Position numbers and translations under genes: made by a program
Shown: one piece after another, positions 29,546-49,800 of the stretch
How positions within the stretch are numbered: position 1 is the first letter of the stretch
Layout: each line of letters begins with the position of its first letter
Assembly: GCA_017499595.2 (NCBI GenBank)
Contig: CM039010.1
Location: 992,001-1,056,000, forward strand
Source of the DNA: Psilocybe cubensis
Taxonomy: Eukaryota
DNA length: 64,000 nucleotides
Direction of reading: 5' to 3'
Notes under the pieces: model-generated
What the model saw: the letters and a program-made list of their open reading frames with translations, nothing else
What the model was told of the DNA's origin: nothing
Database searches by the model: none

Positions 29546-30607
29546 TGTAGCGGTGTAGTGACGAAGGCAGGAGATTAGGACGGTAAATTGAATGGTTGGT
29601 TTGGACTAGTGGACGTTATATATAATTAGCGCCTTGTCCGGGGGTTGGGATTGTTGATTCCCATGTCATAACGAGAGTCCTCTAACGATCGATATCGTGT
29701 GTAGTGGTCAATATTTGATGATACACATTACATAGATAGCTTTTTTGCGTGTTACCAATGAGGTTCCGGTCATCGTAAGATATTCAGCTTCTTCTTCTTC
29801 TTCAACAGTCTGTTGCATTTGACCCATTTCCAGGGAACTGGATGCGAAGAATACATTCTGAAACAACGAAAGGAGTAGCCTGAGTTCATAGGCGTAGCAC
29901 TCACCTAATAAATTGAAACATACCTTGGCAGGAGTGTCTTGGGAGCGGCGACCTTCCTGACATTAAGGAGCAGTAAGGGTGTATGGCAGCGTTAGCCATT
30001 TATTGGATTTCGCGGCCGTAGTTGTGTTGACAGTTGGTGAGACTGGGTATATATGGGGAAAACCCATTTACAATGGAGTCAACTCGAACTTTTCAGTTGG
30101 GTTCAGCTAAACTTGCTCCACAAAAAGTTACTGACACTCAGGGCGGTCGGGTCCCGAAGGGTTGGCGGTCAGCAACTTTACTTGCAATTTCTTTTGGTCT
30201 TATTGATGTTCCGCACAAGATGGGTGAAGGAGGTGCGAAAGGGATGGAGGACCAGGATGTCCCGTTCGCAAAATGCCAAGGCTTGCAAGTCTATTTGCGC
30301 CTATTTGCACATAGGCTCGACTTTTCCATTCGCTTAAGCAAAGACGACAAGGATTAAACAAGGACTAAATTTCGTTCTTACTCCTCGAACGGTGTGAGAT
30401 ATACCCCCCAAGGACATACGTACGAGAAACGTAAGAGGAATATACACTCAAGTTTAAGACGCGCGCCTGACGTAAACCCGGGTAAGTAAGTTGCTTTCAT
30501 CATTGCCATTTACTAACGACGTACCAATGAAGCGTTCCTATCTCTTCGAAGGTCCCTATACTATATACCACACCTTTTGCGACCCTGAAACATTGGTTAG
30601 GTCCACC

Positions 30608-32125
30608 ATGGAAACTCCCCAAACTCCCACTTCCGACTTCAGTTCGCGTCGAAGGTTGAATCAAACACTGGTGGTAAACGAAGCTGTCGAATGCGAGAAC
30701 GACATAACGTCTCTTCAAAATGTCCTCATTGATTTAAAGTACAAGCGCATGGCTCTTAATACGAAGTTGAATTCTGTTCATGACCTGATGGCGGAACTCC
30801 CACTCGAAGTTACAACCGAGATATTCCAACTTGTCGTCGACAGCCAAGAAGAGTCCAACCTTCGCTCACTCCCTACCCAGTTCCTTCTCGGCAGAGTTTG
30901 CAAAGCATGGAGAGACACTGTGTGGAAGCATCCGTCCCTGTGGAAAGATATTCGAATACAAATCATTGCGGAAAAGTACCCAAAACAAGAAGAATTGCTT
31001 GGAGAATGGTTGAATCATTCCGGAACCCGTCCGATAACTGTCAGCATCGCTAGCAAGGACCGATGGCAGCCTCCTCAATCATTTGCTACTTTGCTGCTTG
31101 GGACAAGCCAACGCTGGACCGCCTTCACCTGTTGCTCGCCATTATCGTCAATTTCCGAAGGACTTGCAGCGGATCCGCCTCCCTCATTTCCGCTTCTATC
31201 AAGCATCAAAGTGTTTACTAATGGCCTCCCGCAAAATGAATCAATGAAGTATAATTTCAATGCCACACCTAAACTGCGGAATATCTTTTTATCACACCCT
31301 TACTTGTGTCAGATCTCATGCTCATATCGTTTTCTCACCGCTCTAACAATCTAAGGCCTTCCGGCATCATATGCGCTCAGCTTTATCAACTCGCTACAAA
31401 ACATCAGAAAACTTGTTATATGGCTTACAAAAGGATCTGCAAACCAGATTGCCTCCCAACATACCGGCTTGAAGATCTTACCTTCTCTTAACTCCCTTTG
31501 TCTCACCGGGGAAAACACTGCCGCCTCTGTCATCTTGGACAGAATCATCACGCCTGCATTGATGGACCTACGTCTTTGGATCTACTCAACCGGTAGCGCG
31601 AACCTGGACCACGCCTGGATCACTTCGCTCAATGATTTGCGCGAAAGGTCTGCCTTCAGCTTGTCCAATTTATCATTCAAAGGCGCCGGAATTGGGCAAG
31701 AGGGAATACTTGTGGATGCTGTAGGATCTTTTCCTACTCTGTCTTCTCTACACATTGAAGATCTCGGCAAAAATGGCAACTTCGTGCTCTCCGATTTGAC
31801 AATCGGCTGATTCGATCCTGAAGCTTTTCCAAGTTTCCTCCCTATTCTAGAGAGCTTTACCTTCAAAGGAAAGATCGACTTCAAGCCAACCAAATTGCTA
31901 ACGACACTGGAGAAACGCCTCGAGGCGTCGAAAACAAACGCATCTAGAAAGCCGCTTTGTGGGGTTAATGTCACCTACACCAACGCGCAATGGGCCCAGA
32001 CAGGGGAGAACGGGAATCCTAATCGTGTGTGGGCATTTCATCGCGGGATTGCTGATCTTGCAGCTCGGGGAGTGGATCTTGATGTTGTATGGGATGAAAA
32101 AAATTCAAATGCAAAGGCGCCGTAA
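30608..32125 (+). pseudogene. F-box-like gene with two in-frame premature stops
   Basis: ORFs 30491-31354, 31469-31810 and 31895-32125 share one frame, separated only by TAA 31352-31354 and TGA 31808-31810. F-box LPLEVTTEIF...LGRVCKAWR. Confidence 0.85.
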
Positions 32126-32837
32126 CGGTCTTACTTGGTTGCAAGCCTGTAAGCTCGCAAACGAGATCTGGCGAGGTGGCCAGGTATTCTTTTCTCTTTG
32201 GTTATTTAATCAATGCCAACATCTATTGTATTTTACCCGACATGCTCTCCGGAACTGTTCTTAACATCATATATTATAGGTCATTCACATTTTCTAACAC
32301 ATAGCACTCCTTGTCGGCACATAATCATGATTATTGTTTCCCCCTATACCAGCCTTCTTCCTACCCATTCTTACCCCTGTTCGCGACTTTCAAACTGCTC
32401 ATCCTGACCACGTGGTTTGTGGCGACGCGTTCACACGTACGCGTCGCGATTAAATATCCCACGCTCATAAGTCTTGGCAACTTATTTCCAGGGCACTGTA
32501 TCCTACCGTCTATTTTCAACCTCATTAACGTTCTTCGTACTTAAGCAGGACTGGTACTGTAAGATAACGCTGTCGTACTTCAGAGGTGTGTTTGTGTCTC
32601 TAATATCCCTTCATTGGCAGCTTATACGGACATTTGTAAAGGTCTCGCCAAACGTCAAAGGGAGGCAGTCACCCAACGGAGGTTTCACGTCAATTTGGAG
32701 CGGGAGAAGGGGTTAAAGCTGAATCAGATGTACGTTCACTTTTTCTTGTATCTCAAACATAACTTTGAGTTTTGGTACGCGTTATTTCAGATTCACATTC
32801 CGTCCTCATCCTAGAACAAACCTCCTAGTCACCCACA

Positions 32838-34409
32838 ATGTCCTCTTCCTCGGATTCCAGTTCCGGCTCAGACTCTAGTACTCTCAGCATTACAACCCGC
32901 TCACAGCGCAACCCCGCACGCACCGCCGTAAAACGTCAAATTGCCCTATGCAACCTCCACATCTCTGATCTACACTTTGCGCTCAAAGAAGCCCGTGCCA
33001 AACGCACAGAGCTCAATGCCGCCCTCAATGCGACTACACCCTTTCTCGCCAAGCTCTCGCTCGAGGTTATCTGCGAGATTTTCCAACACGTCGTCGACGC
33101 GCGTGATCCGCGCGATTTTGCGTGCACTCCTCCACAATTTGTGATAGGCCGAGTGTGTAGCGCGTGGCGCACCATCTCCCGCTCGTCCCCTACGCTCTGG
33201 CGCACAGTTGTCATCCGCTTTGACAACCGACGGACTCGGCAGCCAAAGCTGTTGGAGGAGTGGCTAAAGCGTGCGGGTCAGGCAGGACCCCTGCGGTTCT
33301 ACCTCTCGATTGCAACACCAAAGGGCGTATGGAACACCGCACCGCTAGAGTGCTCGACCATGGTCCTAAAGCTGATGCATCGATGGGAGGTGTTTGAGTG
33401 CACCGAGTTCCTTGCGATGGCATGGCACTCGCCGGGGCCAATGTCGTTTCCCCGGCTGAAGGCCCTCTCGCTGCGCTATGAGCCGTTCGACTACAATTAC
33501 TTGCTCGCGCCCCAGTTGCGCAGCGTGACGGTGTATGGGTCGCAGCCGCAACGCCTCCGCTTGTGCTGGGACCAACTAGAAACCGTCAAACTGCACAGTG
33601 TGCATGTCCGTGAGGCGCGGTGGGTGGTACGGCAGATGGTGCAGGCACGGGAGGTGCTGCTTGATGTGCACTGCGAGGGCCCGCTTCCGCCGTCCATTGT
33701 GCTTGACCCGGCAGGGGCGCAAAAGAGGCTCCCCCATCTCCTGACACTTGAGATCAGAGACGACGCAGGCAGGTCCTTGTCCGGGATTCTGCTGGACATT
33801 GTGGTGCCAGCGCTGCAGACACTAACCATAGTCACCCGTGGTCAAAACCAGGCAGGAGGCACGGAGTGGTGCGCGGACCTCGTGGATATGTACCGCCGGT
33901 CCATTACAACTGGAGAGTCCATGTTGACAACATTAACACTAAAACAGTGCGCACTACGAGAGATTGAAGTTATTCAGCTTCTGCACTGCTTACCCTCACT
34001 CACATCTCTTGACTTGCACCATGCCATCTCAGGCGGCGGCATGTCCGACGATCTGATTGACCAGCTCAACCCCAGTAATGACCACCCGGGTGTATGTATC
34101 CTTCCCTTCCTCCGCCGCCTCAATTACAGTGGCCCTGTGAAGTTTGACGCAGACAATGCACTTTTCATGCTCAGCGAGAGGCTGACGTGGGGGGACAATC
34201 GCGCCAAATACAAAGCATTGTTCAATAAAGAGGCACCAGTGGTGCAGAAAATCGAGGAGATGCGGGTCGAGTATCAAAATAGAGAATATTTTAGGGAGGG
34301 CGAGTTTTCAAATCCAAATGGTGTGGGCGCATTTTACGAGCGGAAGGTGGAGTTGAAGACCAAAGGGGTGAACTTTGATATGGTGTGGGTGGAAAGCACT
34401 CGGACGTGA
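32838..34409 (+). CDS. Intronless F-box-like / LRR protein (Agaricomycete expanded family)
   Basis: 523-aa ORF with a coiled coil, LSLEVICEIF...IGRVCSAWR...PTLW, LEEWLKRAG and LxxLxL repeats. Confidence 0.9.
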   Translation: MSSSSDSSSGSDSSTLSITTRSQRNPARTAVKRQIALCNLHISDLHFALKEARAKRTELNAALNATTPFLAKLSLEVICEIFQHVVDARDPRDFACTPPQFVIGRVCSAWRTISRSSPTLWRTVVIRFDNRRTRQPKLLEEWLKRAGQAGPLRFYLSIATPKGVWNTAPLECSTMVLKLMHRWEVFECTEFLAMAWHSPGPMSFPRLKALSLRYEPFDYNYLLAPQLRSVTVYGSQPQRLRLCWDQLETVKLHSVHVREARWVVRQMVQAREVLLDVHCEGPLPPSIVLDPAGAQKRLPHLLTLEIRDDAGRSLSGILLDIVVPALQTLTIVTRGQNQAGGTEWCADLVDMYRRSITTGESMLTTLTLKQCALREIEVIQLLHCLPSLTSLDLHHAISGGGMSDDLIDQLNPSNDHPGVCILPFLRRLNYSGPVKFDADNALFMLSERLTWGDNRAKYKALFNKEAPVVQKIEEMRVEYQNREYFREGEFSNPNGVGAFYERKVELKTKGVNFDMVWVESTRT

Positions 34410-34826
34410 GTGAATGGTTTGTGTATATTTTCCTGCTGTGCTGTTGTATATCCTATGCATTGGGAATATGTATTTCGATTTTAATAGAGTAGAATTTACT
34501 AATTTGAACCCAGGAATGTTAGGCAAGATATTCAAGATAAAGCGAGGTGCGAAAGCACATACATAGTCTGGTAGAGAAGCGCATTTTTGGAAAATTGGAA
34601 TCTTTTTCAAGTCACGCAAAGTTCAAGGACAGCCACAAATAAACAAAACCAAAGAACCAATTTTTTGGTCTCTTCGACTCTCTTGCCATCTCTTGTTTGA
34701 GTCGTAGTACGAGGACATCTTTTGGCTCATTCCTAACGCGTTCACTTAGCAAGGTGCGCTCTTTGATATATGTAGGTCAGAACTGGCTTGATTTTAAGGC
34801 ATATTTTTCTTTACAGTAGGGATCCA

Positions 34827-36548
34827 ATGGATAACAACCTTGAACTCGTCTTCAAAGATGCGAGCACTATAGAAGACATCATTATGCGGAACCAGGGCCA
34901 GCTCGCTGCTGCAAAAGAGGCTACTAGACTCTGCCGGGAGAAACACTACCGACTCAGTTACCATCTCAATAAAGCCAGATCAGTTCTATCATCTCTCCCC
35001 AATGAAGTTATATCACAGATATTCCTGTTTATGTGTGCACCAGAGACCTCGGTGTGGGAATTTTTGTGTTTTCCACCAACTCAGTTCTTGATAGGAAGTG
35101 TTTGTAAAGAATGGCGACAAATTGCGTGGTCCACGCCGCATCTATGGGACAATATTGAAATCCAGTTAGTCCGAAAATCTTGCGAAACCCAGATAGAACT
35201 CCTCGAGGAATGGATTGAACGAAGTGGGAACCTGCCATTGGACATTCACATATACTCGCATGGACTTTTTGAAGCACCGTGGGAAGCACCGCCAGAGGCG
35301 TTTACCAAAATTGCGGAGGTCTATGCTCGTTGGAGAAGCTATCACGGACACGCTGTTCCAGGGCTTGCCGCTGAGTTGAAGCGTATCAATGCAACTTGCT
35401 TCCCAATGTTGGAGACTTTGAGTCTATCGGAACCAATCCATGCCCCACCTGTAAACAATCCTCCGGACACGACATACCAGTGGAACTTCTTATCGGCGCC
35501 TGCTCTACACAATGTTTTAATTGAAGGACCGTTAAAAGGGGTTGATATAGCCATCAATTGGGGGTCCCTAACGTGTCTGACCGCAGATTTTGTCTTGCGA
35601 CAGTCACCGCACAATTCAAAGAAGCAGGGATATGTTTCATTCCATGTGCTGACTTCTTGTACATTGTTGACCAAACTCGAACTCAATCTCAAGGACTCCA
35701 GGGTCTCATCAACGCAGCAGCCTCATCCTTGTCGCTTTCCTCATCTAAAAATACTAAAGATTGAAGGATCGGCGGATATTGTCGAGTATGTTCTAGAATG
35801 GCTCACAACACCTAGTTTGAATGAACTCCAAATTCGTTTGGAAAGCATCGACATAACTAGTGAGTGGGAGGCCTCTCTGATAGACTTAACCACCCGGTCG
35901 TCTTGCAAAATCAGGTCATTGTCCGTTATTCACTCGCACAAACATCCTGAAAGCGATGATGAATTTGTGGATATGCTTCGCATACTTTCGCGCGATCATC
36001 CAATCGACTCACTGGAGATTCGCTCTTATGGTTTCACAATGTCAGACAATATGGTCCTGCTCCTCACGATGCAGCGCGATAGTGAAGAACAACAGGACCA
36101 CCTTCCATTGCTGAAGAATTTCACCTACGCAGGAGACATCTCATTTTCACTAAGGAAATACGCAGACATGATAAACTCCAGGTTGATTTACGAGGCACAG
36201 AAAAGCAAGGAGAATAAAATACACAGAAGACGCGGAACGAAAAAGGAACCAGGTGACGAATACGCAGAGCCAGATAAAGAGGATGAAAATAGCGATGGAG
36301 CGGACCAATTGGACAACTCGTCTGCATCAACCTCCAACTTGAACCCGCTTAATTTCAGTGTCTCTTACGAGAACCTTTCTTGGTTCGGGAAACAACGCCC
36401 ATGCATATTACAATCCTTTTACAAGGAGCTGGAACGGGCTTCGACAAGGGGGAAGAAATTTGACTTCAAGTATGGACAGTGTTGGGGAGAGAATTGCGAT
36501 GATATCTCCAGTGAGAAAGTATATAGTTCATGGCATATGGACTATTAA
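34827..36548 (+). CDS. Intronless F-box-like protein, paralog of 51201-52967
   Basis: LPNEVISQIF...IGSVCKEWRQIAWSTPHLW and LLEEWIERSGNLPL. Confidence 0.9.
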   Translation: MDNNLELVFKDASTIEDIIMRNQGQLAAAKEATRLCREKHYRLSYHLNKARSVLSSLPNEVISQIFLFMCAPETSVWEFLCFPPTQFLIGSVCKEWRQIAWSTPHLWDNIEIQLVRKSCETQIELLEEWIERSGNLPLDIHIYSHGLFEAPWEAPPEAFTKIAEVYARWRSYHGHAVPGLAAELKRINATCFPMLETLSLSEPIHAPPVNNPPDTTYQWNFLSAPALHNVLIEGPLKGVDIAINWGSLTCLTADFVLRQSPHNSKKQGYVSFHVLTSCTLLTKLELNLKDSRVSSTQQPHPCRFPHLKILKIEGSADIVEYVLEWLTTPSLNELQIRLESIDITSEWEASLIDLTTRSSCKIRSLSVIHSHKHPESDDEFVDMLRILSRDHPIDSLEIRSYGFTMSDNMVLLLTMQRDSEEQQDHLPLLKNFTYAGDISFSLRKYADMINSRLIYEAQKSKENKIHRRRGTKKEPGDEYAEPDKEDENSDGADQLDNSSASTSNLNPLNFSVSYENLSWFGKQRPCILQSFYKELERASTRGKKFDFKYGQCWGENCDDISSEKVYSSWHMDY

Positions 36549-36699: not shown

Positions 36700-39090
36700 T
36701 TTACAGCAAAATATACAAGCTACAATAACGCTACTACGACTGACCTTACCTCAAGTGTGAACGCATGAAGAAAGAATGCGAAGACACGAACAAGTCAGTA
36801 TGAAGAGAATGAGGGTGCTCTTGGCCAGATTCAATCCACCCAAAGGTAAGATCGAATCTGTGAAGCCCATACGCCACGTCAAGGCGGCACCCCATCGTAT
36901 GGGAAAAAAAGTGTACCCGACGATTGTCGAGTACGTGTGAAAGACTTTACTACCCGATAGCGGAGTAGTAGGGCCAGCAGGACGCTGTGAGGCGTCTGCT
37001 GGCTATCGTGAAGAAATGAAAGAGCAGAAAAAAATGAGAAAGGAATCCCACCGAGAGGTGGGCTTTGTCGCCCCGGCAGATGGTGCGCGGGTACGACAGT
37101 GCGCGTCAATTGAGCGAGACGCGGTGGTGACTTACCTCGAAATTGTTTGTCGACGAGTCCTCCGCCTACCCTCGGAGACTCGACGGCGGATGGCAGGGTT
37201 GCGATTGAGGTTGTTGGAGTGGGTAGGGTAGTGGACTGCGATCGAGACGTTTATCGTTGGCATAGAAGTAGAGCACGCACCCTGAAAAAAGAATCAGCAT
37301 CAAACTCGACCGAAACAAGATAGAAAAGCACGTACATATGTTTTATGTTTTTTCTTAGTTTTTAAACATATTTTATTTCCTACACAAAGCAAGCGATAGT
37401 GAGCAATCAATGGCGCGAATGAGTAAACGATCAAAACTTACATTTATTTTACAGGACCGGCAGGGTGTCTTTGGTTTGCCCTGCCGGCCACAACCCCCTT
37501 CCCGCCCACCGACGGCATTATATCGTCGGATGGGCTCCGTCGGAATAGGGTTCATCGTTGACCCCCATGCCGACGGTGTCCCCGGGTGATTGACTTTGGG
37601 GTACATTACCGCGCGTGTGCAACCGTGTTGTGGCTACACTGTGGGCACCGGTAGGGAGCTCGTTTATTAGACCGAGCAACGTCCTGCAAACAATTCAAAC
37701 GTAAGTATGTGCGCGACGAGTGAGGACAATCGACTCACTTCTGTTTTATAGGACCGGCGGGGGTCTTGCTTCGTGCCCGCCGGCCACTACCCCCTTCCCG
37801 CCCACCGACGGCATGATATCGTCGGATGGGCTCCGTCGGGATAGGGTTCATCGTTGACCCCCCATGCCGACGGTGTCCCCGGGTGATTGACTTTGGGGTA
37901 CATTACCGCGCGTGTGCAACCGTGTTGTGGCTACACTGTGGGCACCGGTAGGGAGCTCGTTTATTAGACCGAGCAACGTCCTATATAGACAATTCAAATA
38001 TAAGTATGTGCGCGACGAGTGAGGATAATCGACTTACTTCTGTTTTATAGGACCGGCGGGGTGTCTTTGGTTGTCCCCGCCGGCCACGACCCCCTTCCCG
38101 CCCACCGACGGCATGATATCGTCGGATGGGCTCCGTCAGGACAGGGTTCATCGTTGACCCCCATCCCGACGGTGTCCCCGGGTGATTGACTTTGGGGTAC
38201 GTTACCGCGCATGTGCAACCGGTAGGGAGCTCGTTGGTTAGATCGAGCGACGTCCTATGAAGACAATTAAACCGTAAGTATATGTGCGAAAGGTGGGATA
38301 CTGGATAGAGGAAGACTTACTGTACACGGCCGGCGGGGGTCTTGCTTCGTCCCCGCCGGCTGTGGTCCCCTCATCCCACTCACCCACCGACGGCGCCATA
38401 TCGTCGTATGGGCTCCATCGGGACAGGGCTCATCGCTGAACCCTATACCGACGGTGGGTCCCCGGGTGTTCGGGGATGTTGCCGCACATATGTAACCATG
38501 TTGTGGTTACATATGTGGGCTCTACTCGTTTATTAGACCGAGCGACATCCTGTAGTAGAGAAGTCAAATGTAAGTATGTGTGTGTGGAAAGTGGGGGAAT
38601 GCGATACTCACTATTTTTTTTCACTGCATGTGCAGTTATAACCTGCGCGGTGAAGAGCGAGTTAGTCTAGGTAATCGAGAGAGCGGGAAGGTGCTTACCT
38701 TTATTCTAATGAAAGCAAGCGGGTGTCCTGATATATCGTGCAACAGCCGTGCTCGCTGGTGGGTACCTGTACACGATAGTGGTAAGCAAGCGGTCGGACG
38801 ATAAGATGAAAAGAATACTCGCCTGTAAATATCACACAAAGCTGTAATCTGCATGCCAGTGCCCGCGTAAGTTGCTGCGCATGGAGACACAGAGACGACG
38901 ACGGCCTACCTAGTTTCAATCGACAGCGAGCGGCGTGGTAGTTGAGTAGTAGTCGTCTTGTAACGATTAAATCGACGGACTGGCTATGGAGCCAGCCCGT
39001 GATGCAGTCGCTACCTCATCGTCCTACTGCCCGGGGTTGACCAGGCAGGAGGAGGAAGAGTGGGGGGCATTTCGTTGAGGGAAAAAATCG
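36700..39090 (-). ncRNA. Candidate spliced, structured long non-coding RNA, copy L (4 hairpin modules); ends approximate
   Basis: Mirror of the 48585-50650 unit. TATAAA on the minus strand at 39107-39112, conserved splice signals, no long ORF. Confidence 0.55.
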
Positions 39091-40505
39091 AGCAAACTAG
39101 GGGCCCTTTATACCCCTCGCCTCCTGCCTGCCAGTGCCACCGTGCCACCGTGCCACAGCCCATCAATTCTTTTCCCAAGGCTACACACAATCATCAAGGG
39201 TCTCTCCGACGGCACGCGTTCTAATTCTAGATTTCCGACATGACGCCAGCCAATCAGAGTGGGCCAAACAACAGCACTTGCCTTCTTTAGCAATAAAAAA
39301 ACGGGTCAGGCAGCCAATCCAACTATCCAAGGAAATGGTATTACCCTCTTTAGGACGCCAATTTTCCCGCCGGAGACGTGTAGACGGGCCTCCGGGTGGC
39401 TTCGATGAGTGCCTATCGATCAGATAACGCGTTTTCGTTGTCTTTTCCTCGTTGGCTTTAGAAGAAAGGGGTTAGATGGTGCTCACGGGGTGCTGATAAT
39501 GACTCACCTTCGATCTTTGGACGTGTAACATCGAGGCAGGTTAAAAGCCTCCATGAAAACGTGCTGGGAAATGTCCAGGCAATTAGTCTTCCTTAGGCAG
39601 GATTTTGCATGACGTCCGACTTCCTGGGGCATTCTTTCTAAATGCCAGGTTGGTGCGTACGATGCGCTGGCCCCCGAATGCCTTTTACAGCACCAATACG
39701 CCCCGGCAGAACATTAACGACTCGGACCAGCGCACCGAGTCAAATCTTCCTGCCAGTGGACGAGCACCACCGTTTTCCTTCGATCCTCATCGCCTGGATA
39801 TCATCGTCATTGTATTGATTATTTCTTGATTCCGTCCTAGACCTTATCGAACAATTGTAGAGCAAAGTGAAGTGATTAAAAAAGATTATGCATATGGGTT
39901 TGTCGTGTGAGTTGGCAGACGGCGGGAGCGCAATTATTGTGCGCAAAGCTTACGTCATTTAAATTAGACCCCGACGCGTCCGAGTCCTGACGCGTCGCGT
40001 CGTAATTAATTAGTTCGTAACTGTATTGCAGCTTGTCTATTCCCACCGCTTATTCAAACCTCCACCAAACGCGACAAGGACATTTTCAACAGAACAAGAA
40101 CGAGTAGGTAACACCTGCACGATTAAAAAAAAAAATCAACCTCATAGCCTAAATCCACTGTATGTCAATCACTGCGAGCTCTTCCCTTCGATCCATCATC
40201 CCAGAGCGCTCTTTATCCGACGGAAATTCGTGCCATTTCATGCCAGTGCGAGCCACCCAGTCACCAGTGCCCACGCCGTGGGGAACTCCGAGGACGCAAC
40301 GTCGTCGTTGACGCGGAGCTGCGTCTTGAACGCATTTTATAGCTCGCGATGCTACAATACGAGCCTTTCTGAATCGGCTTCAGCGAGCTGGCCCCTGAGT
40401 AGCACTCTGCTCTGCTCGACCAAGGCCTTGTCCTTGTCACCAGATCTAGACCCGCCTAATGCGCTCAGGAATCATGGTGTGCGTCTGGCTAGTATAAAGG
40501 TGTCG
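36811..40505. repeat. Left arm of large inverted repeat (partner ~46828-50560)
   Basis: The reverse complement of 36811-~39990 matches ~47690-50560 closely; for example ORFs 39134-39427(+) and 48243-48536(-) are almost identical. 40000-40505 matches 46828-47396 more weakly. Confidence 0.97.
37450..38620. repeat. Four tandem ~280-300 bp modules (exon+intron units)
   Basis: GGACCGGC/GGCCGGC-starting units at ~37454, 37751, 38050 and 38328, each containing CCCACCGACGGC...CGTCG...GGGTTCATCG and ending in GTAAGTA...ACT(C/T)AC. Confidence 0.95.
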
Positions 40506-40590
40506 AAATTGTATCGGTTTTCCTCGTCGGCAACGCTCTGCTCGATCTCAGCTGTGTCATTCAAGTTGTCCTTCCTATTCCCACCAGAGT
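40020..40590 (-). pseudogene. Degenerate coding relic duplicated in the inner palindrome arm
   Basis: The minus strand reads ...GGSRSGDKDKALVEQSRVLLRGQLAEADSERL... with multiple stops. The plus-strand counterpart at 46828-47200 reads ...SGSRSGDKDKDKDKALIEWCEVLPRGQLAVNEADVDSEK. Confidence 0.4.
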
Positions 40591-42663
40591 AGAGTCACCC
40601 AATAATGTGTTCATCGTGTTTGTTTAAACGCGTCTTCTGTGCAGTGTGCAGTGTGTGTAACAAATGCATCACCAATCAGCGGCGTGCGTGACGGGTTATA
40701 AGGACAATTGAAGTGTTAGATTTTGACCTTTTGTCTTCAGTAAGACTTTCAAGTTCCAGGCTGCAGGCTGTTTACGATGAGTTTACAGGTATAACTCGTT
40801 GACAGTCGTCGTAGGGTTATCGTTTCTACAAAGAATTTAGTCGGGACTTGATGGAGGGGATCTGTTAGAATCTGGAATCCTTTACTTACCAGCTAATTAA
40901 ACAAAACGAGTCTCGGAGAATGGGTGAATCATGGACGTGAGCGAGCACGCGTCGAATTTTGCGGGGATAATTGATTTACATTTACCCCGCTGGCTTGGGG
41001 CTTGGCTATGAGAAAGCTCTGTTTTTGTGCCGTCGATTCAGGGCTGGAAGGAAACGAGTTATGTCTGGAAACGAGTTATGTCTGGGAAAGTCTGGAAAAG
41101 AGTCAAGGCGTAAATGTTGCACTGTTATTGTTAACACTGGCGGCTGGCGGCTGGCGGCTGGCGGCACGGGGCGACTCTGATGTTGTACGCTAATCGTTAG
41201 GACTGTAGAAATCCAGATTCCATTGACAGTGCCGGTTCTAAAGCGTTTTTGGTGCTGTCGACTCTAGACTCTCGAGCAGGAGGGGGTTAGGTTGAGTGAT
41301 TTGGTTGTACGATTGTACTGAGAGTGCTAAGTAGTGCTCGTATATGCGTGCGACGTGCGACGTGTGTGTAACAGTGTGATGGATGAGTTGCATGGGGCAA
41401 TGTATATTGTATCTAGCTTGTCTTGTCTTGTCAATGCCCAATGCCCGATGCGGTGATGGATGGATGTGGTAATGTTTCGTCAGTATATACTACACTTACA
41501 CTTACACTTCCACTTAGATATATGCATATGCGTCTATGCGTCTACGGCGAATCAGGAATCCGAAAGGACAGACTGAATAGATGTCGAAAATCGGGAAATG
41601 TGGTGAAACCGTGAAAGAGATATCACAGCGAGAGTTGGTGATGCCGCAGTAAAGTACGCAGCAAGTGCATTAGCGCAGGGTGCTGCGATAAAGTCGACAT
41701 TTAACCAGGGATGGGATGGGGTGGGCAGGCTGGACGTGTAACGTGTGGTCGTTTACGTTCGCTGCGCGTGATAAGGTTAGAATTAGAAGCATGGATGTGC
41801 TGCGGTTGAGTTATGTAGTTTGTTGGCAGTGGAGGGCTATCCGAGTCTACAATACTCAGAATATTCAACAACAACAACAGTGGTACACACGAGATGAAGA
41901 AACTATAGGAGAACCAGAGCCATGCACGCGTGGTCATGCGGAAACTATGAAAGTGAGGAATCCAAGGGGGTTCAGGGCGGACGCAAAGTCCGGATCTGTG
42001 CTGCTTTTGCAGATCGCATCAATTTGACGTCTGCGGGATATGCAGATTGTAGTGTCACTTGACGCTGAACAGCAGGACGGATGTACAGTCGATAATTTGA
42101 AAGGAGGAGTGCAGTGACTGACGGCTTCCGGCTTTCTCGACAAGACAAGACATGTATTTGTCATCACGCGCGTAAAACCCCTTTGATGTGTCTACCCCCA
42201 AGGTTTCCGCAGAGCTCCGCGTAGATGGATGGCTTCTTGGAGACGATCATTGTGATAAGGACAGAATTCGGAGAAGACTAAAAAGTGAAAATTTTCTGCT
42301 GTAGAAAGTAAGTGCGAAAAAGCCGGTTGCTAGATGATGGGCGTTGAACTATGATCCAGAAGAGCAATGGAATAGCAGGACTAAAGAGGGATATGGCGGG
42401 AGAGAGATGTCTTGCGGGATGGAATGGATGAGGACAAGTTTCATAGATTTGGTGGAGACAAGGGAAGGGTTAAACAGAAAGTTCGCACGCCATGCGTGCC
42501 GAGTTACGTGAAAGTCGGTGACTAGTAAGCTTAATTTTGAAATGCAAGCAAGGCGACCGACCCTCACCCTCTGCCCTCTCTCAACCCAACCACACCAACG
42601 GACACGCGTCTTCAGCTCACCCGAGACGCAGCGTCCTTTGTACGAAGCCCGTAGTGATTAGTC

Positions 42664-45597
42664 ATGCCGTTCCCCTCTCCTCTGCCATCGCCCATGGCGC
42701 TCTCAAAGTCCAACAAGTCCTCCTCCATCTTCAACAAGAAACGCTCTTCCAACGCAACCGGTGCCCTCCCCGCTTCCGCAGCCTCCTACCTCTCCGCCCT
42801 CTCCGAGGCAGACGCCTCTGCCCGCAAACGCAACGTCTCGCCCACATCCACCCCCGCACTGTCCCTCTCCTCCTCCATCACCTCCTCCTCCGAAGACACC
42901 ATCCTCCACGAACCCGAATACCTCCGCGACCCCCTCCTCGCATCAAACAAAGACGGGCTGCTCCTCCCCGCCCGCCCCCCCACCTCGGAGCAGGTCTTCA
43001 ACACCGTCCATACAGAATTCGGCCACTGTGCTGATGAGCGTTACCGCACGACAAGCCAGCACAAGCTCGGCACGCCCCTTGCGCCGCATGTTGAACAGGA
43101 CCCGCCGTATTACATTCTGCTCTCGACGTATATCAGCTACCTCATCCTCATTGTGCTGGGTCACGTCAGGGACTTTATTGGCAAGCGGTTGAACCCTAAA
43201 CGGTATAAGCATTTGATGCCTGGTGGTGTGAGTGTCTCTATTTTTGCTTCTTCTTTTTTTTCGTTTCCTTGCTCGTTGCCCTTGGTGTTGGTTCATCGTT
43301 TGAGGAGTCTGCTCTCTTGTCCATCACTTTTCATTTTTTTCGTGATGATTGTGGCATACGTCTTGTATACGGAGGCATAAGGCGCGGTCACTACGGCGTT
43401 TTGGTTAAGAGGTTTCTGCTATTTTTGCGTTTCTTCTTTTCTTTTTTTGGAGATGATTCGCACAGGGGCATCTGTCTGTGCTGGTTGATTTGTACGCACG
43501 TCGGTCACCCCTAGGCAATGTCTGGTCAAGTTCATACTTCACCGTTGTCCTTGCTCCCGCCATGATTCTTTTCTATGCGGGGTCGTTGCTTTTATACATC
43601 TCCAGAGTCTTGGTGGGACCAGATTCTTTTTTCGCGACTCCCAGCCGGCGCAGGACGAGCTTCGCGTATAACTTACGTGTGATACAATCATTCATTGCGC
43701 GCCTTCTTTCTATTTTTTGTCTTTTATATCGGGAGGGGGCGCGTCGGTCGGGATTTATACGTGTTTATGCGCATGCATCCACTGAAACCCCCGGCGTCGT
43801 GTCTTTTTTATGCGTCTTCTTTTTTTTCGTACTTCGTTTGTCTGTGCTTCTCGTGGTATATGCGGAGTCGAGGGTTGTCAATGTATGCACTGAGCCCGGC
43901 AGCAGCAATATGGCGGGTTCAGACCCCAGCCGCAGTTTGTCGTCTGGCGCACATGCAACGTACAGGGGCATCGCCAACTCCTTACCCATCAATCACACTT
44001 TTCATTCCAAAATTTCATATTTGCTCATACACATTTTCATCATTTAGGGCTACGCACCCCTCAACTCCGACTTTGACTCGTTCTACACCCGCCGGCTCAA
44101 AACGCGCATGGACGAGTGCTTCTCGCAGCCCGTGACAGGCGTCGCAGGCCGCACCATCCTCCTCCTCGACCGCTACTCGCCAGACTACAACCACACGCAG
44201 ATCCTCACCGGCACACGCACGCGCGCACTCAACATCTCATCGTACAACTACCTCGGCTTCGCCCAAGCGCGCGGGCCCTGTGCCGATGCGGTGGAAGAGT
44301 CCATCAAGCGCTATGGCATCTCGTCGCTTGGCGCGCGGTTGGATGCGGGTACGACGGATTTGCATGTGGTTAGTGAGGCGCTTGTGGCGAAGTTTGTGGG
44401 TATGGAGGATGCGCTGATCAGCTCGATGGGGTTCGCGACGAACTCGACGTATATACCGGCGCTGGTGGGCAAGGGGTGTTTGGTTATATCGGATGAGTTT
44501 AATCATGCGTCGATTAGGTTTGGAGTGAGGATTAGTGGTGCGCATGTGCGGATGTTTAGGCATAATGATATGAGGGCGCTCGAGGCGCTGTTGAAGGAGG
44601 TTATTAGTCAGGGACAGCCCAAGACGCATCGCCCGTGGAAGAAGATTTTGGTTATTGTTGAGGGGCTTTATAGTATGGAGGGAACGTTGGTGAATTTACC
44701 GGCTATTATGGAGTTGAAGAAGAAGTACAAGGTGTGTATTCCCGTTTTACCCTTTATCATTTTTGACTGATAATTTTTCACAAGTTCTACCTATACGTCG
44801 ACGAAGCCCATTCAATCGGAGCACTCGGACCACACGGACGCGGCGTCGCAGACTACTTTGGCGTCAACCCGCGGGAAATCGATCTTCTCATGGGCACATT
44901 CACGAAATCGTTCGGGGCGGCGGGAGGGTATATTGCGGGGAGTAAGGCGTTGATTGATGTGTTGAGGGTGCATGGGCATTCGGGGGCGTATGCGGAGGCG
45001 ATGGCGCCGCCTGTGTTGACGCAGGTTGTTTCGAGTATGGCGAGTATTATGGGGTTGCAGGTCGCTGCTGGTGATACGACGACGACGGGGAATGGGAATG
45101 GGATTGTGGAAGAACAGGTGTATCATCATCCCGGACCTGCACCGATTAATTCGATCCCGAGCTGGGTGCATCTCCCACCTGCACTAGCTTCCGGCCAAGA
45201 AGGATCATCCCGGCTGCGTCGTCTCGCATTCAACGCTCGATACCTCCACAACGGGCTAATCAAACTGGGCTTCATAACATACGGCCACCCCTCCTCACCC
45301 ATCGTGCCTCTCCTCTTATTCAACCCAGGAAAGATGAATATGTTTCATCGACTGATGAAGGAGAGGAAGACGCCGATTGTGGTGGTTGTGGTGGCGTACC
45401 CTGCTACGCCGCTTGTGACGAGTCGGGTGAGGTTTTGTGTGAGTGCGGCGCATACGAAGGAGGATGTGGATTGTGTGCTCAAGGCGTGTGTGGAGGTGGG
45501 GGATGTGTTGGATTTGAGGCATGGGATTCCGGTTAGGGAGAGGTGGAGTTTGGAGGAGGTGGTTGAGAGGGCGGTTGAGTTGGGGACTATGGAGTAG
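42664..45597 (+). CDS. LCB2: Serine palmitoyltransferase catalytic subunit (long-chain base biosynthesis protein 2)
   Basis: GYAPLNSDFDSFYTRRLK, LNISSYNYLGFA, SDEFNHASI, EGLYSMEG, YVDEAHSIGA and the PLP-lysine motif GTFTKSFG. Introns 43228-44047 and 44732-44784. Confidence 0.95.
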
Positions 45598-46039
45598 GTG
45601 GGTGGGTGGGGAGAGGAGAGGGTGGCGGTGGGTGGGTGGAGGGGGGGAGAGGGGTGGAGGGGGATTTTTTTAAAATCTTATTTTATCTCTCTTTACCTCT
45701 GGATTCTTTTTGACATTCTTCTTCGCGCTGCGCTTTCTTCTGGAGTTTTTTTTTTTATTTGTTGGATTTTTTTTTACTTGTTTCTTCTTCTTCTTTGGTT
45801 TTAGATAAATGCCTTGTGCTAACCTTTTCCTTTCCTTTTCCTCTCGCCGTTGCCCTCGCCGTTGCCCTCTCCTCGCGCCCACTCTCGCCCACTCTCGCAC
45901 CCAACCTTTTCATGATCTCGCTGTTGTTATCCGTACGCGTAACTCGTAATCATTTTACTTGTCTTGTCTCATCTCTACCTCTATCCGCTACCCGCTACCT
46001 GTATCCTCTAAACGCGCACCCCTATTCCCTTCCTCCTCC

Positions 46040-46175
46040 TTTCCGATTCAATCCTCCTCTCCTCTTTTCCGGTTCGATCCTCTTCTCCTTTCCGATTCGA
46101 TTCGATACTCCTTTCATCCTTTCCGATTCGATTCAATCCTCCTCTCCTCCTTTCCGATTCGATCCTCAATCTTCT
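46040..46175. repeat. Degenerate minisatellite of TTCCGATTC(G/A)ATCCTC-like units
   Basis: About 5 copies of TTTCCG(A/G)TTC(G/A)AT separated by CT-rich spacers. Confidence 0.8.
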
Positions 46176-46624
46176 CCTCTCCTCTCCCACTCCAACGCCA
46201 TTCCATCTAACACCAAACGCTTAACATAACGCCTAACATAACGCTTAACGCCTTTCAATATCACGATCACCCGAAATTTTTTTCTTTACTTTTTTATAGT
46301 ATTTTACTTTGTTGTTACGAGCAGACCAGAACACCGATATAATTTTGTTTTGTGTTGTTTGAGCTTTTGTTTGAGCTTTTGATTGAGTTTTTGTTTGATC
46401 TTTGGTTTGAGCTTGGGGGAAAGTGAGGAGGGTGGAAGGTGGAGGTGAGGTTCTATGAGGTTTTTGGTGGGTTTGTGAACTTCTCTCGAGTCTCCGTCTC
46501 CGTCTCTGCGCGTAAATGAGCGGGGAGGTAGAGTACCGACTCTGGAACTCGTTCATGTTCATGTTCATTTCAGTGATAAGATGGATTTTGGTGGTGAATG
46601 GTATGGATAGAGTCCTACTCGCCG

Positions 46625-46827: not shown

Positions 46828-49800
46828 GTGGATATCTTTATAGTTTGTACTAGCTGGATGCACATCAGGGTTCATGAGCGTGTTAGTGGGTCTAGATCTG
46901 GTGATAAGGACAAGGACAAGGACAAGGCCTTGATTGAGTGGTGTGAAGTGCTACCCAGGGGCCAGCTCGCTGTCAATGAAGCTGATGTTGATTCAGAGAA
47001 GATTGCATGGAGCATTGCGAGCGGTAAAATGTGCTCATGATCACGAGGCAGCTCCGAGCCAACGACGTTGTGTACTCGGAGTACCCACAGGACGTGGGTG
47101 GCTCGCAGGCAATGACACGAATTTTGCGTCGGATTTGTAAGAGCCTGGCTAGTATAGGCTGGGATCGAAGCAAGATCGAAGAGGAGTGATTGACGTGGGT
47201 TTTTGGAGGTTGATTAATGATTTTTTTTTGATTTTTTTGATTTTTTGATATTTTGATTTTGATTGTGTAGGTGTGTATACTCGTTTTTGTTCTGTTGGAA
47301 ATGTCCTTGTCCTTGTCCTTCGGTGTAGTTTTGAACAAATGACTCGGACGGGGATAGAGAAGCTTCAATACAGTTGATAAATTGCGACGCGACGCGAGGC
47401 CTCAGGCCTCAGGGCGCGGTCACGCCCAGGCTATCCATGGGCTATGATATATCACGTAGTAAGCTGCGGGCATGCGATTTATTGCTTTTCACTTCTTTTT
47501 CTATAGGCTTTAGAGCTATGCGATAAGGGCTGTATGAGGTGATCAAGGTGACGATCGTTGGCGTGGGCGTGCCATCCTCAGAGTCGGTAATATTGTTCCG
47601 GAGCATAGCATAGGTACTCAATATGGCATTCACGGTCCAGGGCATCGTGCACCGTGACATCCAAGTGCAGTTAAATAAAACGCGACGCGGCGCGTCAGGA
47701 CGCGTCCGGGTTTATTAATATATGACGTAAGCTTCGTGAGCAATCATTTTGCTCCCGGCGCCATCTGACTCACGCGACAAGAACTACAACACCCATAGTC
47801 CTTTTTATCCCTTCATTTTTCTCCGGTCTAGGACGGAATCAAGAAGTGATCAATGCGATGATATCCAGGCGATAAGGATCGAAGGGAAACGGTGGTGCTC
47901 GTCCACTGGCAGGAAGGTTTGACTCGGTGCGCTGGTCCGAGTCGTTGACGTGCTGCCGGAGCGTATTGGTCCTGTAAAAGGCATTCGGGGGCCAGCGCAT
48001 CGTACGCACCAACCTGGCATTTAAAAAGAATGCCGCAGGAAGTCGGACGTCATGTAAAAGCCTGCCTAAGGGGGAGTAATTGCCTGAAAAAATTCCCAGC
48101 ACGTTTTCATGGATGCTTTTAACCTGCCTACCTGCCTCGATGTTGCACGTCCAAAGATCGAAGGTGAGTCATTATCAGCACCCCGTGAGCACCATCTAAC
48201 CCCTTTCTTCTAAAGCCAACGAGAAAAGACAAAGAAAACGCGTTATCTGATCGATAGGCACTCATCGAAGCCACCCGGAGGCCCGTCTACACGTCTCCGG
48301 CGGGAAAATTCGCGTCCTAAAGAGGGTAATACCATTTCCTTGGATAGTTGGATTGGCTGTCTGACCCGTTTTTTTATTGCTAAAGAAGGCAAGTGCTGTT
48401 GTTTGGGCCACTCTGATTGGCTGGCGTCATGTCGGAAATCTAGAATTAGAACGCGTGCCGTCGGAGAGACCCTTGATGATTGTGTGTAGCCTTGGGAAAA
48501 GAATTGATGGGCTGTGGCACGGTGGCACGGTGGCACTGGCAGGCAGGAGGCGAGGGGTATAAAGGGCCCCCCGTTTGCTCGATTTTTTCCCTCAACGAAA
48601 TGCCCCCCACTCTTCCTCCTCCTGCCTGGTCAACCCCGGGCAGTAGGACGATGAGGTAGCGACTGCATCACGGGCTGGCTCCCCAGCCAGTCCGTCGATT
48701 TAATCGTTACGAGACGACTACTACTCAACCACCACCCCGCTCGCTGTCGATTGAAACTAGGTAGGCCGTCGTCGTCTCTGCTCCTCCATGCGCAGCCACT
48801 TACGCGGGCTTTGGCATGCAGATTATAGCATTGTGTGATATTTACAGGCGAGTATCCAGTTAGTTCTATCGTCCGACTGCTTGCTTACCACCATCGTGTA
48901 CAGGTACCCACCAGCGAGCATAGCTGCTGCACGATAGTTCAGGACACCCGCTTGCTTTCATTAGAATAAAGGTAAGCACCTTCCCGCTCTCTCGATTACC
49001 TAGACTAACTCGCTCTTCACCGCGCAGGTTATAACTGCACATGCAGTGAAAAAAAATAGTGAGTATCGCATTCCCCCACTTTCCACACACACATACTTAC
49101 ATTTGACTTCTCTACTACAGGATGTCGCTCGGTCTAATAAACGAGTAGAGCCCACATGTGTAACCACAACATGGTTACACATGTGCGGCAACATCCCCGA
49201 ACACCCGGGGACCCACCGTCGGTATAGGGTTCAGCGATGAGCCCTGTCCCGATGGAGCCCATACGACGATATGGCGCCGTCGGTGGGTGAGTGGGATGAG
49301 GGGACCACAGCCGGCGGGGACGAAGCAAGACCCCCGCCGGCCGTGTACAGTAAGTCTTTCTCTATCCAGTATCCCACCTTTCGCACATATACTTATGGTT
49401 TAATTGTCTTCATAGGACGTCGCTCGATCTAACCAACGAGCTCCCTACCGGTTGCACATGCGCGGTAACGTACCTCAAAGTCAATCACCCGGGGACACCG
49501 TCGGGATGGGGGACAACGATGAACCCTATCCCGACGGAGCCCATCCGACGATATCATGCCGTCGGTGGGCGGGAAGGGGGTAGTGGCCGGCGGGCACGAA
49601 GCAAGACCCCCGCCGGTCCTATAAAACAGAAGTGAGTCGATTATCCTCACTTTTCGCTCACATACTTATGTTTGAATTGTTTGCAGGACGTTGCTCGGTC
49701 TAATAAACGAGCTCCCTACCGGTGCCCACAGTGTAGCCACAACATGGTTGCACACGCGCGGTAATGTACCCCAAAGTCAATCACCCGGGGACACCGTCGG

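Follow-up and report, generated by a model that had tools for sequence, protein, structure and literature searches.

Two arrays of exon-and-intron repeats in the genome of Psilocybe cubensis may represent a young, lineage-restricted gene for a spliced, structured and most likely non-coding RNA with a repeated hairpin domain, a reading to which we give a probability of roughly 0.5. The arrays lie in a 64,000-nt stretch of contig CM039010.1 (the window), and all coordinates are those of the window. In the proposed mechanism, two inverted paralogues would be transcribed outwards from a shared centre of ∼8 kb, and the gene body would have grown as a single unit was duplicated in tandem and multiplied through unequal crossing-over. 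This growth unit would be an exon of ∼240 nt with a spliceosomal intron of ∼55–66 nt, present four times on the left and three times on the right, and the spliced RNA would bear three to four head-to-tail copies of one structured domain, each with about six hairpins.

The left array consists of four exon+intron units on the minus strand (37442–38549), and TRF reports a 297-nt period at 37436–38221 (2.6 copies, 92% matches). In the direction of transcription, the unit exons are L1 (38321–38549, 229 nt), which is the most diverged unit and has the longest H2 hairpin; L2 (38038–38254, 217 nt), which lacks this hairpin; L3 (37739–37980, 242 nt); and L4 (37442–37683, 242 nt), in which the terminal stem H6 is of the A-U type. 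The borders of L1 and L3 are as parsed from the repeats. The introns on this strand are those before L1 (38550–38611, 62 nt), between L1 and L2 (38255–38320, 66 nt, GTAAGT...TAG), between L2 and L3 (37981–38037, 57 nt, predicted from splice signals and bridged by none of the contigs listed), between L3 and L4 (37684–37738, 55 nt, GTGAGT...CAG), and after L4 (37379–37441, 63 nt). The left-arm introns also look like introns on the plus strand (GTAAGT...CTCAC...TAG), since GTAAGT, once reverse-complemented, resembles a branch site.

The left array is part of a ∼3-kb inverted duplication. Its left arm (36837–39806) carries the whole transcription unit, and the right arm (47856–50534) was delimited by inverted-pair matches that are 91–98% complementary. 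The right-arm array (49121–49928, plus strand) has three units as parsed, R1 (49121–49349, 229 nt), R2 (49416–49631, 216 nt) and R3 (49687–49928, 242 nt), separated by introns of 66 and 55 nt. R1 shares 99.1% identity with L1 and R3 shares 98.3% with L4; R2 is a recombinant of L2 and L3. Overall, the units are 78–93% alike, with L3 and L4 at 93% and, by our own reading of the unit alignment, identical over their first ∼110 nt. The units are also mosaics of one another; the H6 loop is common to L1 and L3, and CCCTGT is common to L1 and L2. The seven units are therefore not seven independent samples, and their effective number is about four. A search of the window with an nhmmer profile returned these seven full-length units and none further, all confined to the two arrays, and 18 of the 22 occurrences of the CCGWCGG motif in the window fall within units, which is at most a lead towards a repeated protein-binding site.

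The initial annotation had proposed that the locus is built of exon+intron modules whose splice sites lie on one strand, and contigs of runs X1 and X5 bear this out. In these contigs, exons are joined at the predicted minus-strand GT..AG borders; the 'RNA?' label of both runs is a guess made by the tool, and a DNA copy of that strain from which the introns are missing would be a formal alternative. Six joints that skip genomic sequence fall on the left copy of the gene. The five with readable ends show minus-strand GT..AG, 11 other letters separate the two sides of the sixth, and the six together remove seven introns, one joint spanning two introns around a micro-exon. Exon L1 is flanked by joints 38548>38611 and 38253>38320 in an X1 contig, the second of which skips the 66 nt of the L1–L2 intron (CT..AC on the plus strand) and so marks the upstream border of L2. 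The intron downstream of L4 is removed by joint 37378>37441 in both X1 and X5. Splicing of the left arm from the plus strand was rejected, as every readable joint reads CT..AC on that strand. DNA-like runs X2 and X3 gave no such joints. X1 and X5 cover is absent at 36800–37200, 37608–37708, 38012–38112 and above 39122, which places the transcript ends and the L2–L3 intron outside this evidence.

The same transcript has further exons and introns upstream of the array (38612–39053, minus strand), seen in a 488-nt X1 contig that runs from 39053 to 38331 with joints 38771>38910 and 38640>38697. These comprise exon 1 (from at least 39053 to 38911), a micro-exon at ∼38848–38823 whose borders were deduced from 21 letters between the two sides of a joint, exon 3 (38766–38698) and exon 4 (38640–38612), all on the minus strand. 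A TATAAA motif at 39107–39112 on this strand lies 54 nt beyond the most upstream base of the contig and, judged from its sequence, is a likely core promoter. The downstream part of the transcript (37208–37378, minus strand) contains a short exon at ∼37378–37348, an intron, and a next exon from ∼37281, with approximate borders. The joints in this part are 37378>37441 and 37281>37348, both in X1 and X5, and the second is the one with the 11 extra letters.

One further joint in the contigs 'goes back 242' (37979>37738), from the end to the start of L3. Such a joint on a transcribed tandem repeat of ∼297 nt could suggest a back-spliced circular RNA, or a tandem self-cleaving ribozyme or viroid-like satellite repeat. 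The joint is a unit-to-unit exon junction, a linear splice from exon end to exon start (L3 to L4, as fits the 55-nt intron, or R2 to R3) that takes this form when mapped onto a tandem repeat, and a circular RNA was rejected on this ground. In addition, the units are bordered by ordinary GT..AG introns that contain a branch-like CTTAC. Covariance models of Rfam 15 gave no family at gathering score across the 64 kb, and at E≤10 the region 37200–38800 gave only four chance-level hits (14–25 bits, against gathering scores of 42–80). An unknown ribozyme domain had been among the earlier suggestions; it is not supported, as these four hits aside no Rfam family, ribozymes included, was matched even at that threshold. 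We consider the ribozyme, satellite and circular RNA readings extremely improbable.

The exons look non-coding. Stop codons interrupt 19 of 21 sense frames and all 21 antisense frames of the seven unit exons, the exon lengths are not multiples of 3, and the reading frame differs from one unit to the next, R2 and R3 using different frames for the same unit sequence. The only related protein match is an orphan P. cubensis 'hypothetical protein' (JR316_0013053) annotated at this same locus, in two conflicting models of 151 aa (XP_047742216.1) and 143 aa (A0A8H7XU26); the other two of the three protein hits are unrelated repeat proteins. That the locus is a protein-coding orphan gene, as this annotation has it, would agree with the open frame in L2 and R2 and with the finding that the right arm encodes both annotated ORFs (P0001 and P0002) letter for letter, given non-standard donors. 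These donors are two different ones, GTGAGT at 49287 or GTACAG 5 nt upstream, whereas with the GTAAGT donor seen in the contigs the frame stops after 31 aa. The two models disagree at the N terminus, and the longest spliced ORF of the left paralogue is a piece of 92 aa. No Pfam family was matched, and no relative of the orphan protein was found among 1.84 billion representatives beyond its own cluster. A protein gene should show a single reading frame through the repeats and relatives elsewhere, and neither was found. Based on these results, a coding function is very unlikely; the transcript is most likely non-coding, and the annotated proteins are probably gene-prediction artefacts on a non-coding repeat transcript. 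Transcription and splicing with no conserved reading frame is the pattern of a repeat-unit lncRNA, with the reservation that the RNA label of the runs is guessed.

The dense hairpins described in the initial annotation are real, as the sense exons fold beyond dinucleotide shuffles. Their z-scores are −7.5 (L1, MFE −119.3), −4.6 (L2), −4.0 (L3) and −4.9 (L4), and none of 200 shuffles folded as stably as any of these exons. The corresponding antisense z-scores are −6.5, −1.9, −1.8 and −3.75, and a tool check of L3 gave −3.76 for sense and −1.64 for antisense. As DNA, the hairpins form near-perfect palindromes, so the antisense strand also folds well, as L1 illustrates. Folding of the consensus gives −82.3 kcal/mol for the sense strand versus −70.4 for the antisense strand. 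In the common structure, which has 63 pairs, 96.9% of the 425 cells are paired. Thus, the tandem units each fold into a common structure, as do those of repeat-unit lncRNAs. The hairpins of this structure are H1 (GCUCG/CGAGC), H2 (8–17 bp; 17 bp with one bulge in L1), H3 (CCCC/GGGG), H4 (a 7-bp CCGUCGG/CCGACGG base topped by an inner stem and a loop of 4 nt), H5 (a bulged stem of 11 bp) and the terminal H6 (an 11-bp GC stem).

A precursor of small RNAs, from which a Dicer- or RNase III-type enzyme would cut hairpins or duplexes between units, might draw on the 17-bp stem of L1 H2, the longest one present; a miRNA-like or Dicer-substrate precursor would be expected to have a stem of ∼20 bp or more. 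Furthermore, when the spliced array of 930 nt is folded, 101 of its 295 pairs join different units, and equal palindromic stems can therefore form longer duplexes. The remaining stems are 5–11 bp, which is short for Dicer products, and no Rfam miRNA or other family was matched. We consider this source of small RNAs improbable; as a role for the locus, it ranks next after that of a protein-binding platform, considered below.

Covariation between the units was examined stem by stem, and the claims of the initial annotation fared differently. The compensatory change that it reported in the terminal stem is present, columns 212/232 being G-C in five units and A-U in two (L4 and R3). The wobbles reported in the CCGTCGG hairpin are also as described, with four pairs that vary only between Watson-Crick and G-U, and the GCYCA/TGGGY stem varies by wobbles at columns 153/184 and 155/182. 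In a further stem, the sequences read as reported, but at columns 49/65 and at columns 51/63 a single side changes between A-U and G-U, which makes two separate changes rather than one compensatory pair. The closing ACCCC/GGGGT stem is an alternative long-range pairing that is possible by eye but absent from the RNAalifold consensus. That the wobbles read as G-U on the spliced strand holds in the six hairpins when these are defined by geometry (11 distinct G-U states versus one A-C by hand count, binomial P 0.003), and is partly circular if the pairs are derived from the fold. When the antisense alignment is folded, other helices result, in which 10 wobbles are of the antisense type (A-C when written as the sense strand) versus 5 of the sense-type G-U. 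Two-sided compensation occurs in 4 of 63 pairs, two of them in weak helices, and was matched by 10 of 500 column shuffles; the RNAalifold covariation term (+0.28) adds no stabilising, that is negative, energy to the consensus. With no more than ∼4 independent units, and with 39 of the 63 pairs invariant across units, the covariation is thin.

As a separate measure of constraint, a structure was taken from one group of units and examined in a diverged unit, with the same base changes re-placed at random. On the sense strand, the pairs kept were 49 of 54 (P 0.004), 62 of 71 (P 0.019) and 64 of 71 (P 0.00015), whereas on the antisense strand there was no excess of kept pairs (P 0.22, 0.85 and 0.41). 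Since L3 and L4 are 93% alike, these three tests amount to one comparison. The procedure preserves the spectrum of changes, so it partly controls for a mutation bias linked to transcription. Strain differences within the unit exons also bear on constraint: among the 13 shown, 8 are unpaired, 5 lie in pairs, and none breaks a pair. Selection on RNA structure, which the earlier reading had invoked, thus draws on the strand-specific sparing of pairs, while true compensation (4 of 63 pairs) is weaker than had been claimed. On balance, we lean slightly towards the view that the hairpins are kept by selection at the RNA level.

These observations must be weighed against a neutral origin, in which the units would be a young repeat whose DNA palindromes arose and stayed perfect through template switching and gene conversion, and whose transcription and splicing by chance yield an RNA with no function. 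Template switching during replication can create and maintain hairpins, and compensatory pairs can arise by it at the DNA level, both sides of a stem being fixed by the process, as set out in the account of Monttinen and Loytynoja (2022, PMC8794818). The locus resembles the hairpins of that account in its near-perfect stems, which fold on the antisense strand as well (L1 and L4 above), in the extension of H2 in L1, and in a two-sided change with no intermediate observed: only 2 of 229 sites distinguish R1 from L1, and these are the two partners of one H2 pair (A-U versus G-C). Conversion is suggested by the mosaicism of the units and by 148 nt of non-unit sequence adjoining L1 (38550–38697) with 0 differences between arms, and both therefore point to a contribution of conversion to the low divergence. 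The similarity of the units (78–93%) also leaves little time for decay.

Other results are not those expected of such a neutral history. Template switching, in the form treated in PMC8794818, is a DNA process that is blind to strand, whereas the locus spares pairs on the sense strand only (P 0.0002–0.02 versus 0.2–0.85), and the excess of G-U over A-C states in the hairpins is not predicted by it. Between the arms, 8 of 687 sites have diverged in the unit exons (1.2%) and 12 of 246 in their introns (4.9%, P 0.0014), a divergence ∼4-fold lower in exons than in introns, yet conversion tracts should not skip introns of 55–66 nt; the rest of the arm differs at 81 of 1723 sites (P 7e-6 versus unit exons). 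Finally, with six short, GC-rich and separate hairpins in each 240 nt, the locus does not have the usual shape of a foldback repeat. A foldback or MITE-type transposon would leave dispersed copies with terminal inverted repeats and target-site duplications; within the window, units occur in the two arrays and nowhere else. From these results, we regard the neutral origin as possible, if doubtful.

The neutral origin would also fit the outcome of searches for relatives, as none was found outside P. cubensis in the protein and metagenome-pattern searches. A scan of metagenomes with the H5 hairpin pattern returned 0 stretches. A looser H4 pattern returned at least 119 stretches, all single matches. 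When the seven units were compared by blastn with the 704,607 bases of these stretches, nothing longer than 28–51 nt was found, at E 0.01 or worse, the best match being 28–35 nt at E 0.01; these short matches were taken as chance, and the stretches were rejected as relatives. A description of the locus was likewise not found among the papers listed on Psilocybe or on basidiomycete lncRNAs and tandem-repeat RNAs, a search that did not cover supplementary transcript lists.

If the transcript is indeed a structured non-coding RNA, its repeated domain might, by analogy with repeat-unit lncRNAs, offer multiple docking sites to a protein that binds hairpins or dsRNA, a role as a multivalent platform that we propose only tentatively. 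The scaffold and protein-sponge functions suggested in the initial annotation would be putative in the same way. In its fullest form, which we hold to be rather unlikely as a whole, the proposal is a fungus-specific modular lncRNA that would combine a new ∼240-nt six-hairpin domain, exon+intron cassettes, selection on the transcribed strand and a multivalent platform, with a copy number adjusted through unequal crossing-over among units and between the two inverted gene copies. Such an RNA would be the counterpart in fungi of the design seen in Xist repeats or NORAD. If the constraint at the RNA level is real, the locus would belong to a very small number of fungal lncRNAs in which a structured domain is both defined and repeated, and a natural case of RNA growth by copying of an exon with its intron. 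The compensatory and wobble changes that the two paralogues and their three or four units display within one genome ease the design of experiments that disrupt and restore stems. If the neutral reading is right, the locus would be a worked example of how palindromes and template switching mimic RNA covariation.

Tandem exon duplication in protein genes also amplifies an exon+intron unit by unequal crossing-over. The units of the locus would have been amplified in the same way, the right arm having lost one unit through the L2/L3 recombinant; unlike the exons of protein genes, they have lengths that are not multiples of 3 and keep no frame. Among non-coding RNAs of animals, NORAD is a repeat-unit lncRNA that the locus resembles in the same respects as it does the repeats of Xist. 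In the case of Xist, whose tandem repeat modules are the subject of PMC8786293, the shared features are a long spliced non-coding RNA, tandem hairpin units and many equal binding sites, protein binding being putative for the locus. The locus has no sequence or Rfam relation to Xist or NORAD, and its conservation is known within one species. In contrast to both, its units are ∼240 nt long with about six hairpins each, its host is a basidiomycete, and each unit forms a separate exon with an intron of its own after it.

The left array was parsed by minus-strand splice signals into four tandem units, each one exon plus one short intron. The exons are L1 (38549-38321, 229 nt), L2 (38254-38038, 217 nt), L3 (37980-37739, 242 nt), and L4 (37683-37442, 242 nt), separated by minus-strand introns of 66, 57, and 55 nt (38255-38320, 37981-38037, and 37684-37738, respectively). 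Every intron has a 5' GT[AG]AGT, a branch-like CTTAC/CTTAT motif, and a 3' YAG, and Tandem Repeats Finder detects a period of 297 nt over 37436-38221 (2.6 copies, 92% matches). Three further units lie on the plus strand at 49121-49928 (exons R1, R2, and R3 of 229, 216, and 242 nt; introns of 66 and 55 nt), such that each arm of a large inverted duplication (∼3 kb; 36837-39806 versus 47856-50534, 91-98% complementary) houses one array. R1 is 99.1% identical to L1 and R3 is 98.3% identical to L4; R2 has an L2-like start and an L3-like end, so one unit was lost from the right arm by inter-unit recombination. L2, L3, and L4 are mutually 91-93% alike, and L1 is 78-81% identical to the other units. 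Because of these identities and the R2 recombination, the seven units represent only about four sequences that are independent, and L1 alone among them is well diverged. In the 64 kb, an nhmmer profile built from the units found these seven and no further full-length copy.

Much weaker inverted similarity (76-84%) extends inward from the arms (39900-39961/47719-47780 and 40381-40438/46915-46972), which suggests either an older, larger palindrome with outer arms homogenised through conversion or a more recent duplication superimposed on an earlier one. The ORFs at 40014-40592 (+) and 46973-47401 (-) are 34% identical across 128 aa; the latter weakly matches the phosphodiesterase domain of fungal tRNA ligase (PF08302; E 0.0005, 20.1 bits against a cut-off of 23) and may be a gene fragment or a chance match. 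The neighbors of the arrays are F-box-like genes and an aminotransferase. The F-box-like ORFs cluster at 30476-31354, 32829-34409, 34776-36548, 51147-52967, and 62524-63999, with PF12937 matched by 5 of 10 scanned ORFs, some under the cut-off; the two that flank the arms (34776-36548 and 51147-52967) are paralogues in direct orientation (76-81% DNA identity), although the intervening arms are inverted. The class I/II aminotransferase gene (44048-45597, +; PF00155, E 4e-20 and 2e-20 for two ORF pieces) lies at the center between the arms. Tandem repeats at 1587-1850 (95-nt unit, 2.8 copies, 94% matches) and 46033-46182 (26-nt CT-rich unit, 5.5 copies) are unrelated to the units.

Read on either strand, the unit introns look like introns: the plus strand has GTAAGT...CTCAC...TAG where the minus strand has GTGAGT...CTTAC...CAG. 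Since GTAAGT resembles a branch site once reverse-complemented, the strand is undecidable from the sequence alone. We placed contigs from four public runs on 36800-39800, including two (X1 and X5) whose label "RNA?" is a tool's guess and not a record of RNA. The X1/X5 contigs contain left-arm, minus-strand joints at 38640>38697, 38548>38611, 38253>38320 (skipping 66), and 37378>37441. Two more joints carry additional letters between their sides: 21 at 38771>38910, fitting a micro-exon of ∼26 nt, and 11 others at 37281>37348, where the ends are unreadable. At every joint with readable ends the plus strand shows CT..AC, hence minus-strand GT..AG, and the minus-strand reading is the sole one found in the contigs for the unit introns. 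A 488-nt contig spans 39053 to 38331, crossing three introns, and TATAAA is present at 39112-39107 on the minus strand. DNA-like runs with the same organism label (X2 and X3) cover the stretch, yet have no such joints. The minus-strand GT..AG joints in X1/X5 and their absence from X2/X3 uphold the unit model and the spliced strand that the initial annotation had proposed; formally, a DNA copy without introns in the strain behind X1/X5 stands as an alternative to splicing. The 21 letters inside joint 38771>38910 point to a probable GC-AG intron (38767-38822, minus strand, GCGAGT...ACAG) downstream of the micro-exon. At one further X1/X5 joint, 37979>37738, which "goes back 242," the last bases of a unit abut the first bases of a unit; a circle was dismissed as its source, as a linear L3-to-L4 (or R2-to-R3) splice on a tandem repeat looks alike.

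It is very unlikely that the units are coding, even though public gene models exist. The L2 translation matched one protein among 13 candidates, a 143-aa P. cubensis "uncharacterized protein" whose cluster mate is the 151-aa "hypothetical protein JR316_0013053," and the right arm (49121-49928) encodes both letter for letter. The window derives from P. cubensis itself or a strain very near it. These models require either a GTGAGT donor inside R1 (49287) or a GTACAG donor lying 5 nt before the normal site; if the contig-supported GTAAGT donor is used, the frame ends after 31 aa. The two models conflict at the N terminus and use donors absent from the contig, so they are probably mis-annotations. 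They also read the same unit sequence in one frame in R2 and in another in R3. Stops occur in 19 of 21 sense frames of the seven unit exons (the open exception being one frame each of L2 and R2) and in all 21 antisense frames, the exon lengths are not multiples of three, and ORFs in the spliced left transcript reach at most 92 aa. No Pfam family was found for the ORF, and a HMMER search of 1.84 billion representatives (E<=0.001) returned 3 matches, its own cluster and two unrelated repeat proteins. Based on the stops, non-standard donors, frame switching, and lack of a Pfam family or relatives in these searches, the ORF is most likely a gene-prediction artefact and the RNA non-coding.

The fold of each left exon was compared with dinucleotide shuffles (n = 200) on both strands; on the sense strand every exon was far more stable than its shuffles. 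Sense and antisense z-scores were -7.5 and -6.5 for L1, -4.6 and -1.9 for L2, -4.0 and -1.8 for L3 (-3.76 and -1.64 in a tool check), and -4.9 and -3.75 for L4, and 0 of 200 shuffles matched the sense fold of any of these exons. The common structure (RNAalifold) has 63 pairs, with standard pairs in 96.9% of 425 cells, and comprises six hairpins, H1 (5 bp), H2 (8 bp; 17 bp in L1 and missing from L2), H3 (4 bp), H4 (a 7-bp base, CCGUCGG/CCGACGG, plus an inner stem and a 4-nt loop), H5 (11 bp, bulged), and H6 (11 bp), plus two weak helices. The CCGWCGG heptamer that builds H4 and H5 has 18 of its 22 occurrences in the window inside units. When the spliced 930-nt array is folded, 101 of its 295 pairs are inter-unit, so equal stems are able to pair across units too. 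Rfam gave no match at the gathering score across the whole window and four chance-level matches (E 2.8-7.6; no family assigned) in 37200-38800. These searches lend no support to the suggested ribozyme domain, and we consider a ribozyme or circle highly improbable.

Constraint was assessed by deriving a structure from one group of units, redistributing the real base changes that lead to a diverged unit at random over bases of the same type, and counting surviving pairs. On the sense strand, the L2-L4/R2-R3 structure kept 49 of 54 pairs in L1 (null mean 42.9, P 0.004), and the L1/R1 structure kept 62 of 71 in L3 (57.0, P 0.019) and 64 of 71 in L4 (55.7, P 0.00015); since L3 and L4 are close, the three comparisons are effectively one. 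The antisense counts were 46 of 54 (43.8, P 0.22), 57 of 72 (58.8, P 0.85), and 57 of 72 (56.0, P 0.41), respectively. The two arms diverge at 8 of 687 unit-exon sites (1.2%), versus 12 of 246 in unit introns (4.9%, P 0.0014) and 81 of 1723 in the remainder of the arm (4.7%, P 7e-6). Among the 40 listed of 117 strain differences, 13 fall in unit exons, 8 at unpaired positions and 5 at paired ones, with every pair left intact. Evidence that the structure of the transcribed RNA is constrained is real but modest.

Against selection, a neutral palindromic repeat is quite possible, though not the reading we favor. The stems are near-perfect DNA palindromes and the units are mosaics of each other. 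The 148 nt of non-unit sequence adjoining L1 also has no between-arm differences, so gene conversion is at work. PMC8794818 describes replication template switching as able to make stems and repair both sides together, and this process could account for two-sided changes.

Plain covariation is thin. Among the 63 pairs, 39 are invariant, 14 change on one side, 4 on both, and 6 depart by unpaired cells only. Four two-sided pairs were attained in 10 of 500 column shuffles, 0-2 were found when 3' partners were shifted by 1-3 columns, and the RNAalifold covariation term is +0.28. Two compensatory pairs are solid: alignment columns 212/232 of H6 are A-U in L4 and R3 and G-C in the five other units, bearing out a terminal-stem change singled out in the initial annotation, and columns 46/68 of H2 are G-C in R1, L3, L4, and R3 and A-U in L1. 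L1 and R1 differ at only 2 of 229 positions, which pair with each other in H2 (chance about 0.001).

The sense fold has 16 G-U and 2 A-C wobble states. The claim that wobbles mark the spliced strand is partly circular, because folding the antisense alignment yields other helices with 10 antisense-type wobbles versus 5 sense-type G-U; what stands is a hand count of 11 G-U versus 1 A-C states in the six geometry-fixed hairpins (P 0.003). Transcription is associated with an excess of C>T and A>G changes on the non-template strand. Such a bias would likewise favor sense-strand wobbles, and the placement test, which retains the spectrum of changes, controls for it in part only. What the initial annotation observed is confirmed, and its interpretation has partial support: "covarying hairpins" overstates the case, while it is accurate to speak of exons rich in hairpins whose changes spare the structure in a strand-specific way.

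Taken together, the locus most likely produces a young, lineage-restricted, spliced non-coding RNA, and we place the probability that it is a structured RNA under constraint at roughly 0.55. Its body would consist of 3-4 copies of one six-hairpin domain, would have grown via duplication of an exon+intron cassette, and the gene would be carried as two inverted copies. Two metagenome scans gave nothing related to the units among the matches listed, and we found no paper describing this RNA in a literature search that covered material other than supplementary files. A small-RNA precursor is unlikely. The RNA would fit among the repeat-unit lncRNAs, which include NORAD. By likeness to these, it might, tentatively, serve a hairpin-binding protein as a multivalent platform, a candidate role comparable with that of NORAD and of the tandem repeats of Xist.
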